From IMG/VR virus record IMGVR_UViG_648276671_000012: DNA of 11,787 nt. One strand, written 5' to 3'. Positions within the stretch are counted from its first letter, which is position 1; each line of letters starts with the position of its first letter. Below the pieces are notes generated by a model. It was given only the letters and a program-made list of their open reading frames with translations. It searched no databases and was not told the DNA's origin. Origin of the DNA: a virus (lineage: Duplodnaviria; Heunggongvirae; Uroviricota; Caudoviricetes). A program made the position numbers and the translations under genes. Shown here in pieces: positions 4,475 to 11,787 of this stretch.

Positions 4475-4680
4475 TTCATTTTCACTTTTTTAAATCCAAC
4501 GACAGACGGCTGGCATTTAAGTATTGTGAAATATTATCAAATGTAATCATCATTGATTTACAAAAGATACATTTTGCCCCGAAAGGATTCATGTCAGAAA
4601 CATCAAAAGATGATGTTCTATACTGGGAACCATGACAACACGGGCATCTAAAGTGAATATGGTTTGTAATATTGTCTACC

Positions 4681-4893
4681 TCAAAGCGCCACTACATGAA
4701 CAGCGGCAGGACCTTTAGGTCCGTTCTCAATACCAAATTCAACTTCCTGATTCTCAGTTAATGTTTTGAAATCGTTGCTCTGAATTGCTGAGAAATGGAC
4801 AAACACATCTTTGCTGCCATCTTTCGGCGTGATGAAACCAAAACCTTTTTCAGGGTTAAACCATTTCACTAAACCAGTCATTTTGTTAGACAT
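4681..4893 (-). CDS. cspI: cold-shock protein, CspA family (CspI-like), 70 aa
   Basis: [34 protein letters not shown]... with RNP1-like KGFGFI and RNP2-like VFVHF motifs. cspA-type SD (AAGG about 9 nt upstream of ATG 4893..4891) and a roughly 360-bp upstream intergenic region consistent with a long csp 5' UTR. Confidence 0.9.
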
Positions 4894-5255
4894 AATTATT
4901 ACCTTTTGAAGAAATTAGCCCTTGGGCAGAATGGTCCGAAAAAAAATATCAGAGAGAAAAACCAACAAGGAAATCTCAAGAGGTACAAATAATAAAATTA
5001 TAACAATGACTGCTTCAGATAAATTTGTAACAAACCAGAACACCATTAACGCATGATTAACCACCCATAGCAAGGATTACTTTTGTAAAGAAAAACACAG
5101 CAATGAAAGAATAGCTTTATTTATTAATAAAACGTGTCATTCTGATTAAGACCTTTTATCTTACCCTTAAGATTTCAGGAATTTTGACTCATGGAAGAGT
5201 CCTTTTTATTTAAATTTTACATTCAGCGATGTAAATGTTCCGATTTAATATTACC

Positions 5256-6279
<1,024 letters not shown>

Positions 6280-6283
<4 letters not shown>

Positions 6284-6591
6284 ATATATTTATGATGAGG
6301 ACGCTCGTGCTTATTGGCAGGATTTTCAATCTTAAAGGAGTACTGATGCTGCAGATAAGACTCAACTTTTTCTGACAATTTTTCTGCTACTTCCAGGAAG
6401 ACTTGCCGGACGCTCCTTCTGGCTGCTGCCTCATAAAACTCCAGCGCAGCTCCTTCAACACGGTCCATGGCGACATCCAGGCCAAAAATTTCACCGTCAA
6501 AGCGTTCTTTGTCCTGTAAGGCTACAGTTACCGTAACTTTATTCTCAAAATTACGGACTCCTTTCACAACCAGTTCATAGTCTTGAGTCAT
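6280..6591 (-). CDS. ydfR: DUF1327-family protein (YdfR-like), 103 aa, inserted between holin and endolysin
   Basis: ORF tightly packed in the lysis cassette: stop overlaps the endolysin start and its start is 5 nt after the holin stop. Assignment by synteny and length. Confidence 0.65.
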
Positions 6592-6595
6592 TGGA

Positions 6596-6811
6596 TTACT
6601 CTCCTCTCGCAGCCTTACGCCTGTCTTCTTTAATCTTGAAATAAAGATTTGTCAGATACGTCAGCAGGCCAAAAACCAGGCTACCCAGCACACCGATTGC
6701 AGCCCACTGTGACGGAGTTACTTTATCGAGTAACTGCAATGCCCAGAAACCAGCATTACCCGCCGATGTGCCATAGGCAACACCTGTTGTTAACTTATCC
6801 ATTGATTTCAT
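6596..6811 (-). CDS. essQ: phage 21 S-type pinholin with dual-start motif (M-K-S-M), 71 aa
   Basis: [71 protein letters not shown] closely resembles phage 21 S68/S71 as recalled. Two TMDs; GAGG SD 4-5 nt upstream of ATG 6811..6809. The track's 96-aa version (to 6886) is probably an artefactual N-terminal extension. Confidence 0.85.
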
Positions 6812-7030
6812 ATCCTCACCCCGATGTACACGGATGGTGCAATATGTTTGAAAAGATCGGAGTCTACGGGGTAGTTTTGACAGCACACGTTGTTCTCAAC
6901 GGCGCTAAAAAAACATACACATTAAAAATGTGGGTAATTATTTTGAAAGAAAGTCATATATAAAATAATAATACGAGAAATGTTTTCATATTTAGTGTAC
7001 TGTATACGGCCATTTATACAGGAAAAGCCT

Positions 7031-7261: not shown

Positions 7262-7285
7262 AAAAACCCGCCTGAGCGGGTTTGA
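7262..7285. terminator. intrinsic terminator hairpin (AACCCGC-CTGA-GCGGGTT), strong on minus strand, weak on plus
   Basis: GC stem with tetraloop flanked by an A-run and a T-run. On the minus strand it is followed by U6 (downstream of cspB); on the plus strand it follows the zinc-ribbon ORF. Confidence 0.55.
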
Positions 7286-7564
7286 GATTGTGGTGCTTTT
7301 TGTGGGAGTCATCCACTTACGCACTTTGTTTTGCCATGCCAGCAGTTAGCTTCTGCTGTAAAACTATTCATGCAGCAAACCTGCACTTCACCACAATGGT
7401 TAGCATACTTTTCCTGATTAAGATTTTGCCAAATATGCTGGCCATTGTTTCATGTATTGGACCTCCTTACTTTTTATTAAAGAGATCCAATATTCACTAC
7501 TCTGTCCGTATCTCTACTCAGGCATCAGCCTTCTTCGTTATCGTATACAGACGAGCGATGAATT

Positions 7565-7780
7565 TTAATCAGTAATGATGACATTTACTGCTGCAGGACC
7601 TTTAGCACCACTCTCTATAGAGAAGGTAACCTTTTGACCTTCAAATAAGGTTCGATAATTATCATTCTGAATCGCAGAAAAATGCACAAACACATCTTTA
7701 CTACCATCAACAGGAGAAATAAAGCCGAAACCTTTATCAGCGTTAAACCATTTTACTAAACCAGTCATTTTATTTGACAT
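7565..7780 (-). CDS. cspB: cold-shock protein, CspA family (CspB-like), 71 aa
   Basis: [64 protein letters not shown]...; RNP1/RNP2 motifs. Sits between Q and the holin as cspB does in Qin. Confidence 0.9.
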
Positions 7781-8078
7781 TCTACATTCCTTAACTTGAG
7801 CCTTTCGGCATAAATGGTTTGCATAACAGAAACGACTTCGTACTTAATTGGAGAGACTCAAAGAAGGAATAAGTGAATAACACCTGAAATGAGAACTGCT
7901 TTAGTAAACTACTTCGTATATCGTCTGTTCTTCAAACCGAAGCAGTCATTAACTCATAGTTGAACATATGAAGCAATGTTTATTTTAGACATCCAGCCAC
8001 CTTCAACCCTATCAACAAAGTAGTTTTCTCCAGGAACGTGTGTATGGTGCACCAGGTTATCAGTATTAAGGAGTTTTT

Positions 8079-8284
8079 CTGTCCCCTAAAATGACAGGAA
8101 TTGCCAAAAACTTTGACTACAAAAGCAGCAAAGGTCTTATATTCCCATCCGATGGCGTATCGATGCCCAGCTTCACGTTTCAGCTCTCAATCTTCGAGAT
8201 GCAGAAGAAATTACCACAGGATTACGCGTGGAATTTTGCCGGATAAATGGTTCGCGTGGACCTTCAACTGCCAATGTTTATCCC
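8079..8284 (+). pseudogene. cspF/cspH-like cold-shock gene remnant: start codon changed to CTG, -1 frameshift near 8156, altered C-terminus
   Basis: Frame A from 8079: [26 protein letters not shown] (recalled CspF: [26 protein letters not shown]). The match then continues in another frame: [50 protein letters not shown] is intact at 8068..8073. Product reconstructed by hand across two frames. Confidence 0.6.
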
Positions 8285-8324
8285 GGGATGAGATTCAATA
8301 TCTCTATTGCCCCATTTAAAGCAC

Positions 8325-8350
8325 AAAAACCCGCTTATAAGCGGGTTTTC
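8325..8350. terminator. perfect palindromic terminator hairpin (AAAACCCGCTTA/TAAGCGGGTTTT); candidate tR' of the late promoter and terminator of the cspF-like gene
   Basis: 24-bp perfect palindrome 8326..8349 flanked by A/T runs, about 110 bp downstream of the Q stop on the minus strand. Confidence 0.55.
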
Positions 8351-8396
8351 TACTTTTTTCTAAACGTCGGATACACAAAGCCCATCGTTGAGAAAA

Positions 8397-8425
8397 TCTT
8401 ATCCATGTTTTTTGAAAAATGCAAA
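8397..8425 (-). promoter_or_regulatory. candidate late promoter PR' (with Q-utilisation region) immediately downstream of Q
   Basis: Minus strand TTGCAT (8425..8420), 17-bp spacer, TAAGAT (8402..8397). Location matches lambda-type PR' between Q and tR'. Hexamers are each 4 of 6 to consensus, so the call is positional. Confidence 0.35.
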
Positions 8426-8455: not shown

Positions 8456-9208
8456 TTATCTCGTCACCTTCCTCAATTGCGCTTCCGCGTATGCTTCTTC
8501 CTGCCAGCACTTTGTTACCAGTTTACCAATGACGTCCGCATACCCCTTATACCACTGATAATCGGTCAGGTCTGGTACCAGCTTCTGGACATGACGTCGT
8601 GCCAGCGTGGTCGGTAAACGACTAAACCGGTTTCCATTACAACGCCCACAAATCTTATATACCGGTACGCCATGAAAACGGGTTCTTTTTTCATCCAGAA
8701 CAATCCCTTTACCCTTACACCCTCTGCACGCTGTGCTGACTTCGCCCTTACCATGGCAATGCTGACATAGTTCCTTCACCCATTCTTCCTTGATTACAGA
8801 TTCCCCGCGTCTGTAGTGTTTCACCACTTCGCGCAATACATTATAAAATCCCGTACCTGAACAATGCTCACAGCGAGCCTTACTTGCCGCAGACCTGGAG
8901 TAATCAGCAAAGGCAAAACTCACGAGGTAAGGAATAATCTGTAACCGGATTTCTTCACTCAATTTGTTCAATGTCGGGTTATCCAGTGCCATCGCGTAAT
9001 TTAGCAGGCCTTCAATCGCAAACTGAGGGTCCTGAACACCAACTTTTGCCAGAAATAAGGCCAACCCAAGTGGTGCTTTCGACTGCACCATCCCCTGCGC
9101 TGCCATTACATCCGTAATTGTTAAACAACCGGTGCCTGTCGCTGGAGCGTCATCGCTCAATTTTGGAGATTTTGGGGAGTAATATTTTGGTAAGGCTTCA
9201 AGGTTCAT
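8456..9208 (-). CDS. quuQ: late-gene antitermination protein Q, 250 aa from internal ATG
   Basis: Track ORF 8456..9238 (260 aa); the ATG at 9208..9206 with GGAG SD gives 250 aa. Multiple Cys/His zinc-finger-like motifs ([31 protein letters not shown]). Located upstream of the PR'/tR' module and the lysis genes. Confidence 0.8.
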
Positions 9209-11085: not shown

Positions 11086-11241
11086 TTACTCCTCAGGTTC
11101 GTAAGCTGTGAAGACAGCGACCTCCGTCTGGCCGGTTCGGATTCGTACCTCGCAGAGGTCTTTCCTCGTTACCAGTGCCGTCACTATGACGGTTAAACAG
11201 ATGACGATCAGGGCGATTAACATCGCCTTTTGCTGCTTCAT
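11086..11241 (-). CDS. hokD: Hok-family type I toxin (HokD/RelF-like), 51 aa
   Basis: MKQQKAMLIALIVICLTVIVTALVTRKDLCEVRIRTGQTEVAVFTAYEPEE: single TMD plus conserved Hok C-terminal motif. AAGGAG SD 8 nt upstream of ATG 11241..11239. Confidence 0.85.
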   Translation of the reverse strand: MKQQKAMLIALIVICLTVIVTALVTRKDLCEVRIRTGQTEVAVFTAYEPEE

Positions 11242-11298
11242 AGCCTGCTTCTCCTTGCCTTTCGGCACGTAAGAGGCTAACCTACATTTGCTAGACAT
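11086..11298 (-). CDS. mok-like in-frame upstream extension of hok (70 codons)
   Basis: In-frame extension MSSKCRLASYVPKGKEKQA + Hok, resembling the N-terminal extension of MokC as recalled (MLNTCRVPLTDRKVKEKRA + HokC). Conservation of the extension at protein level supports a mok-type regulatory reading frame. Confidence 0.45.
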   Translation of the reverse strand: MSSKCRLASYVPKGKEKQAMKQQKAMLIALIVICLTVIVTALVTRKDLCEVRIRTGQTEVAVFTAYEPEE

Positions 11299-11787
11299 AG
11301 ATTGGGCCTCAGATTAATGTTAAGCGTCTTGCAGGACGCGTAATGTTAACTGGGGCTTTTCTCTATCTGCCGTTGGTGGCATGCCCGAGGCAGATAGCCT
11401 CAAGCACCCGCTGCAATTCTACTTAACTCTTCTTTTCCCGCAAACCGTTTTTATCCAGCACAGCAAATAGCCGCATTAAGCCAATGTTGTTCATTGTGTT
11501 TACCGCCAGTATTCAATACAAATGACCGCCATGAATACCCCTACAAAAAGCGCACTTATATGTCCAAATATTAATGTCAAGACATCAACTTCCTCCATCT
11601 CCTCCGCTGTTGCGATGATAGGTATACATGATGCAAACAACCAGATTGCAACAAATAAAAACTGCAAATGTCTTTTTCATTATTCCCCCGACAATCAATG
11701 AGTAATAACATTTAAACATAGATTGACATAATCAGACATAAAAATAATCTAGGCTGCACATTTTGCTTACATCGTGTTATAGGGAAG

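Follow-up and report, generated by a model that had tools for sequence, protein, structure and literature searches.

In bacteriophage lambda, the late genes stand at the end of a cassette with the canonical order Q gene, promoter PR', pause element, terminator and late genes, and the antiterminator Q loads onto RNA polymerase paused close to the promoter (PMC9388147). The pause element is a -10-like sequence, AACGAT at +1 to +6, that is rebound by sigma70; it is followed by a discriminator-like GGG, and the polymerase pauses at +16 (PMC4005639). Lambda Q binds as a monomer to a 13-base-pair (bp) site in the promoter. Its helix-turn-helix contacts positions 1-4 of the site and its zinc-ribbon arm positions 11-13 (PMC9388147); besides this downstream half of the site, the arm also touches sigma region 4. 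Here we describe a related locus in IMG/VR record IMGVR_UViG_648276671_000012, of which the whole 11,787-nucleotide (nt) stretch that was analysed is called the window. As judged from its sequence, the window represents a lambdoid E. coli prophage that resembles Qin. The element that follows its Q gene on the minus strand is very probably the late-gene switch of this prophage, built like that of lambda.

Two other described systems are informative for this locus. The record of phage P22 (NC_002371) annotates P late, a qut-like site, a start site and tR' at +31 to +59, with a short RNA similar in size to that predicted here. P22 has a lambda-family Q (gp23, gene 23), 33% identical to the window Q, and a nearly identical pause element (AACGATGGA). 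Unlike in the window, its promoter and spacer are of the lambda type (TTGACT...TTGGG TAAATT TGACTC), and the terminator sequences differ. In Shiga-toxin phages, StxS is, like the predicted window RNA, a short transcript from a constitutive PR' that is stopped at tR' in lysogens (PMC7547250). StxS is an Hfq-dependent regulator processed from a longer form (PMC7547250), whereas the window RNA is a prediction. The authors of the StxS study proposed antiterminated phage promoters as a general source of small RNAs (sRNAs) (PMC7547250).

Direct reading of the minus strand 3' of the Q stop codon (8458-8456) gives, in order, 31 nt, TTGCAT, a 17-nt spacer (TTTTCAAAAAACATGGA), TAAGAT, TTTCTC, AACGATGGG, about 30 nt, AAAACCCGCTTATAAGCGGGTTTT and TGTGCTTT. 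The -35 hexamer thus begins 31 nt beyond the stop codon, and the palindrome AAAACCCGCTTATAAGCGGGTTTT begins 46 nt beyond the -10 hexamer; the TGTGCTTT that comes next yields a run of five U residues in the RNA. The original prediction, made from the letters alone, had proposed a promoter with these two hexamers and a 17-bp spacer shortly after the Q stop, with a perfect 24-bp palindrome downstream. All of these lie where it placed them, on the minus strand (8424-8419 and 8401-8396 for the hexamers, 8349-8326 for the palindrome). It made no mention of the pause element AACGATGGG, which proved to be the decisive feature. The parts of the element are as follows.

8456-9208, minus strand: Q antiterminator gene of the ydfT/quuQ type, 250 amino acids from its ATG (PF03589; lambda Q family)
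8419-8424, minus strand: putative PR' -35 hexamer, TTGCAT (direct reading; invariant in a 10-phage alignment)
8403-8415, minus strand: candidate Q-binding element, TCAAAAAACATGG, at -26 to -14 (placed from spacer conservation)
8396-8401, minus strand: putative PR' -10 hexamer, TAAGAT (direct reading; 17 bp from the -35 hexamer)
8381-8389, minus strand: predicted start (+1 = 8389) and sigma70-dependent pause element, AACGAT plus GGG (identity to lambda PR' +1 to +9)
8373-8374, minus strand: predicted pause position, +16/+17 (analogy with lambda only)
8326-8349, minus strand: tR' intrinsic terminator hairpin, the perfect 24-bp palindrome AAAACCCGCTTATAAGCGGGTTTT (terminator scan, RNA fold, covariation, K-12 Term-seq)
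8321-8329, minus strand: U-tract and predicted RNA 3' end, UUUUUGUGC (the base equivalent to the K-12 3' end is 8321)
8321-8389, minus strand: predicted short terminated PR' RNA, about 69 nt (from predicted start and end)

The sequence AACGATGGG (8389-8381), located 7 nt after the -10 hexamer, is identical in the alignment to positions +1 to +9 of lambda PR'. The composite TTG-N20-TANNNT-N6-AACGATGGG occurs once in the window, where 0.04 occurrences are expected even with two mismatches allowed. The likeness to the lambda PR'-qut-tR' region, source of the 6S RNA, goes further. Both loci have a PF03589 Q gene directly upstream, a 17-bp spacer, TGG at -16 to -14 and an intrinsic terminator before the lysis genes, and the two DNAs can be aligned from the Q stop codon to +9. 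They differ in the -35 hexamer (TTGCAT in the window, TTGACT in lambda) and in the distance to the terminator, which lies at +40 to +69 in the window and at about +194 in lambda. The dead-end RNA would therefore be about 69 nt long in the window, as compared to 194 nt in lambda.

The upstream gene encodes a lambda-family Q. Its open reading frame (ORF) matches the Pfam Antiterm family PF03589 (E 3.5e-54), shares 33% of its residues with lambda Q along the full length and is annotated in near-identical genomes as ydfT, antitermination protein. It also matches the lambda Q structures 7UBM/7UBN (E 4.7e-36), except for an insertion at residues 121-159, and 4MO1 was matched as well. This cysteine-rich insertion (8732-8848, minus strand), which amounts to 39-48 residues as compared to lambda Q and is absent from the latter, falls in the zinc-ribbon arm and carries two extra CxxCxGxG motifs; Pfam also scores it as a DnaJ-type central zinc domain. 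Q proteins form three distinct families, with that of phage 82 in PF06323 and that of phage 21 in PF06530 (PMC9388147). In the domain search, the window Q matched PF03589 and the DnaJ-type zinc motif only, and neither PF06323 nor PF06530. Phages 82 and 21, which had been put forward as comparators, are thus misplaced in this role; lambda and P22 are the proper ones.

The spacer points to a candidate Q-binding site. An IMG/VR motif scan, in which the TTG of the -35 hexamer was required by the search, gave 59 promoter variants. Eight were judged to be chance matches because they have neither a Q homologue upstream nor a terminator, and 51 were judged to be real. Among these 51, CAT and CAA are the commonest continuations of TTG in the -35 hexamer. 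At spacer positions that the search did not force, conservation is high: T-27 86%, T-26 94%, A-20 94%, A-19 90%, T-16 92%, G-15 98% and G-14 92%. Between -26 and -14, lambda has TGAATAAAATTGG and the window TCAAAAAACATGG; 9 of the 13 bases agree, with TGG at site positions 11-13. A candidate 13-bp site at -26 to -14, within the promoter spacer like the lambda site, would thus fit the published lambda geometry, its placement being drawn from conservation. The upstream half varies from one class of Q to another, in keeping with possible differences in specificity.

The arrangement is conserved among relatives. In phage Tritos, whose genome was deposited as complete, a 171-bp region covering the element has 99.4% identity to the window; identity is 79-94% in 2H10, SfV, mEp460, Ayreon, Stx2c-converting phages and Salmonella phages. 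In the SfV and Ayreon records, only a terminator is annotated at this place. In an alignment of ten phages, the -35 hexamer, almost the whole spacer and AACGATGGGCTTT are invariant, and the -10 hexamer is TAAGAT, TAAAAT or TAGGAT. Of 91 loci, including 80 collected by their Q protein only, with no preselection of the motif, 87 contain AACGATGGG, and the layout is the same throughout 30 Qin-type sequence variants and lambda. Fifteen Stx2c-converting phages (LC727876-LC727890, locus L008) carry the same module with a Q that is 94% identical; in the one Stx2c phage record examined, no stx or tRNA gene was found within 1.5 kb downstream of it.

The module is also recognizable at greater distances. 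The real variants of the motif scan sit 7-42 bp behind Q proteins that are 34-100% identical to the window Q, lambda's own included. Nine distant lambda-family Q loci were sampled by protein alone (33-42% identity), and in eight of them a promoter with an AAnGnTGGG-type element stands 60-80 nt after the stop codon. The pause element is exact in four of the eight; the others are P22 (AACGATGGA), YeP2 (AAGGATGGG) and two Klebsiella phages (AACGCTGGG and AATCGTGGG). The ninth locus, mEp013, has no such element within 220 nt. Behind every variant with a -35 hexamer other than TTGACT and a detectable upstream Q homologue, there is a hairpin terminator at +29 to +68. In contrast, a search over 260 nt gave no terminator for lambda-type (TTGACT) promoters; the leader of Salmonella phage SF6 is long, like that of lambda. 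On this evidence, a terminator at +30 to +70 is the usual state of lambda-family Q cassettes. The exception is the lambda-type promoters; in lambda, tR' lies near +194.

Homology among the carriers of the module stops within a few bases of the terminator T-run (near 8320, minus strand; loci L003-L011 and L012-L091). At least seven unrelated sequences start right after this T-run, among them cspF/cspB and SfV orf47; therefore Q, PR' and tR' move together as a unit, behind which the cargo varies. The 3' edge of the terminator is both a sharp mosaic joint and a site of cargo insertion.

The terminator itself is supported in several ways. The terminator scan lists the hairpin with 10 pairs, 5 of them G-C, and reports it on the plus strand, where it also has a T-rich tail. 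Indeed, both strands read as a stem plus a U-run (AAAA-stem-TTTT), with CTACTTTTTT as the plus-strand tail and TGTGCTTT as the minus-strand tail. Folding of the predicted RNA 8389-8321 gives -19.3 kcal/mol (z = -2.3) and a terminal hairpin of 14 pairs. Over 33 variants, 97.7% of the cells of the terminator helix are paired, and three pairs show compensatory changes on both sides; the fraction of paired cells drops to 30-50% if the partner is slid by 1-3 columns. Distant relatives have wholly different self-complementary stems at the same place. The predicted RNA, about 69 nt from 8389 to around 8321, would fall within the 60-70 nt that had been estimated for a short terminated transcript.

In E. 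coli K-12, the interval between ydfT (quuQ) and cspF of the Qin prophage contains the same element with few substitutions (-10 hexamer TAAAAT, loop GATG). Qin is annotated there as a cryptic prophage, with cspF and ynfS intact. A Term-seq study of K-12 reports a curated dominant 3' end at NC_000913.3 1,642,356 (minus strand), in two of three conditions, and classes it as "orphan" (PMC7815308). This position is the C after GGGUUUUGUG, exactly at the U-tract; the terminator is thus used in vivo in K-12. By analogy, the 3' end fits a 67-nt K-12 RNA if the start is lambda-like at 1,642,422, the window equivalent being about 69 nt. In a literature search on quuQ and ydfT, we found no publication that names the K-12 3' end or the promoter as tR' or PR'. 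Taken with the identity of the pause element, the lambda-family Q and the conserved layout, this 3' end argues for the PR'-like promoter, Q engagement site and tR'-like terminator that the original prediction had proposed.

Downstream of the element on the minus strand lie the presumed targets of the switch, and a convergent gene on the plus strand faces its terminator.

8091-8320, plus strand: convergent cspF pseudogene (broken frame; a 99.7% identical genome annotates a frameshift and a missing C-terminus)
7264-7283, minus strand: second intrinsic terminator, after cspB (7565-7780) and before the holin gene (terminator scan, strong)
5256-6886, minus strand: lysis cassette, presumed target of Q-dependent read-through (holin PF04971, lysozyme PF00959)

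We infer the start site, the pause, Q binding and read-through as follows. Sigma70 RNA polymerase would start at or near 8389, from a moderate and probably constitutive promoter, TTGCAT-17-TAAGAT. Sigma70 would then rebind AACGAT and GGG as a second -10-like element, which would make the polymerase pause close to the promoter, near +16. In the absence of Q, it would escape and stop at the hairpin and U-tract (8349-8321), releasing an RNA of about 69 nt. With Q present, loading of the protein onto the paused polymerase would follow its binding in the spacer (candidate site at -26 to -14). The Q-modified polymerase would read through both terminators (8349-8326 and 7283-7264), via cspB, to the holin, lysozyme and Rz genes. 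The second terminator would keep cold-shock-driven transcription of cspB out of the lysis genes.

Several observations weigh against a lambda-like switch. The hexamers TTGCAT and TAAGAT agree with the consensus in 7 of 12 positions and fall under the threshold of the promoter scan, which found 3 promoter-like sites as compared to 5.2 in shuffled sequences, hence no excess. By these counts the hexamers alone are no better than chance; together with the adjoining AACGATGGG they are beyond it, and the promoter is credible because this neighbour is identical to the lambda pause element. Just upstream of AACGATGGG, the window has TTTTCT at -7 to -2, which agrees with the lambda TTGACT at 4 of 6 positions; the corresponding hexamer of relatives is TTTTCC or TTCTCC, with conservation of only 50-76% at positions -6 to -2. 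In lambda, this TTGACT, one base upstream of the pause element, is presumably the -35-like element at which sigma region 4 is repositioned. The window sequence also differs from lambda at the expected pause position and in the upstream half of the candidate Q site (C, not G, at -25). In addition, the insertion in the window Q lies in the DNA-contacting arm, and by analogy the details or the geometry of Q loading may differ from those of lambda. A start at K-12 1,642,422 (minus strand; about 1,640,446 in older coordinates) has no entry in the Sun 2021 RNET-seq, Cappable-seq 2016 and Kim 2012 tables. Finally, the ydfU-ydfT (Q) mRNA is another possible source of the K-12 3' end: a start upstream of ydfU is mapped in K-12 (Kim 2012), and therefore Term-seq proves the terminator, not the short RNA. 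The differences from lambda lower confidence in the details of loading, not in the kind of element.

Part of this evidence would also suit a simpler view, in which the hairpin simply ends the Q (ydfU-ydfT) transcript in the ordinary way and serves as a bidirectional stop shared with cspF, and the hexamers are due to chance. Because the ydfU start is mapped in K-12, the Q mRNA must end nearby, and the Term-seq 3' end fits such an end equally well; the hairpin has T-rich tails on both strands, and the hexamer score and the lack of enrichment are what chance would give. We nevertheless regard this view as highly improbable. It leaves unexplained an exact lambda pause element that is correctly spaced from the -10 hexamer, a near-invariant -35, spacer and -10 amid varying flanks, and the same layout behind Q proteins that are 34-40% identical, and it leaves the lysis genes without another evident route to Q control. 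Moreover, the two roles of the terminator, as the end of the Q mRNA and as tR', do not exclude each other. The service of the palindrome to cspF, which had also been proposed, is a prediction from sequence only: the T-rich plus-strand tail suits it, whereas cspF is a pseudogene and the K-12 Term-seq list has no plus-strand 3' end at 1,642,370-1,642,409, which low cspF expression could explain. Decay of the prophage was considered as well, with promoter, pause element and terminator surviving as an inactive relic that no longer works in the host. The frameshifted and truncated cspF and the cryptic annotation of K-12 Qin would agree with this. It is nonetheless very unlikely, given that every element is intact, that the region is 99.4% identical to Tritos, a phage deposited as a complete genome, and common to 2H10, SfV, mEp460 and Stx2c-converting phages, and that the K-12 copy still terminates RNA according to Term-seq.

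A further possibility concerns the RNA and not the switch. The 67-69 nt transcript could also be a trans-acting, Hfq-binding regulatory sRNA made constitutively by the prophage, for which StxS provides a precedent (PMC7547250). In the predicted RNA, the terminator hairpin and U-tract are preceded by an A-rich stretch, AGAAAAAAGUAGAAAA, an arrangement interpreted as resembling Hfq-binding features. In uninduced K-12 cells, the 3' end is a dominant, curated peak, and about one in three complete E. coli genomes carries the element. Against these points, we found no Hfq-binding, target or phenotype data for this RNA, it has no Rfam family, and the literature search on quuQ or ydfT gave nothing relevant. 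The stretch between pause element and terminator also varies substantially among relatives, which argues against a conserved seed. An additional regulatory role of this kind thus seems unlikely, and the late-gene switch is the reading that we retain for the element.

The switch is of an ordinary and well-understood kind, and this member of it is apparently undescribed; the current understanding of Q antitermination is unchanged. What it adds is the probable location of the late-gene control point in a very common E. coli prophage type, whose module is also present in SfV, mEp460 and Stx2c-converting phages, and a likely account of an unassigned "orphan" RNA 3' end in K-12. Behind Q proteins that are only about a third identical, the lambda pause element has hardly changed. 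The relatives offer natural variants for studying how lambda-family Q proteins recognize their sites, and the short RNA is a candidate prophage sRNA.

The predicted RNA may also fold at its 5' end. A possible 5'-terminal hairpin (8363-8389, minus strand) is formed by pairing of AACG (+1 to +4) with a CGUU that lies at +20 to +28, at variable distance. This CGUU is found in almost all lambda-family late leaders, lambda (L002 788-810) included, and in IMG/VR loci L093-L212. The inner stem uses the GGG of the pause element, and the hairpin is weak in the window (-3.5 kcal/mol). In minimum-energy folds of +1 to +34, at least four of the first five nucleotides are paired in 38 of 45 unique sequences; shuffled sequences gave a mean of 6 and a maximum of 11 of 45. 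No covariation is possible in this hairpin because its 5' side is fixed by the pause element, and RNAalifold over the 33 variants recovered the terminator only, not the 5' hairpin. That the lambda-family late short RNAs, including lambda 6S and the K-12 Qin RNA of about 67 nt, share a functional 5' hairpin as an undescribed part of qut or of the late leader is a tentative and rather doubtful proposal. If it held, the hairpin might stabilise the transcript or help Q-loaded polymerase to leave the pause, and an abundant short RNA might act in trans, like StxS.

Other features of the short RNA and its surroundings were examined. An 11-codon ORF lies within the predicted RNA (8350-8385, minus strand), with its ATG inside the pause element and no evident ribosome-binding site. 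It was rejected as a gene since it is not conserved: lambda has ATG-GGT-TAA at this place, and relatives differ in frame and length. An Rfam search over 8321-8389 gave nothing that reaches the gathering score, and the sub-threshold matches (rnk leader, RsmY, Trp leader and isrK) were set aside as driven by the terminator hairpin. The PasD/STnc100 sRNAs, which are linked to PF03589 Q genes, were considered as the PR'-tR' RNA and dismissed because, in two distant loci, STnc100 lies some 360-950 nt beyond the promoter. STnc100 (RF02076) is found there at L123 10289-10481 and L113 5416-5596, as cargo behind the late promoter; a 2026 preprint relates it to PasD1/PasD2.

The junction between cspF and Q is matched in 1841 of 5426 complete E. 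coli genomes. In the window, cspF has a 1-nt deletion that shifts the frame after about 22 codons. By comparison with K-12 Qin, a deletion of 258 bp has removed the last two cspF codons, the stop codon and the small gene ynfS, and the cspF remnant now adjoins the terminator. The lysis region is annotated in a near-identical genome as essD, ydfR, rrrQ and rzpQ. The cspA thermoregulator RNA family RF01766 is matched over its full length twice, at 7518-7941 (minus strand, 158.5 bits) and 4654-5039 (minus strand, 112.8 bits). These stretches correspond to the leader and coding sequences of cold-shock genes, cspB-like and cspI-like, that lie within the late region. The sok antitoxin RNA RF01794 is also matched over its full length, upstream of the Q operon (11236-11409, minus strand, 117.6 bits), which indicates a hok/sok-type locus, corresponding to the hokD region of Qin.

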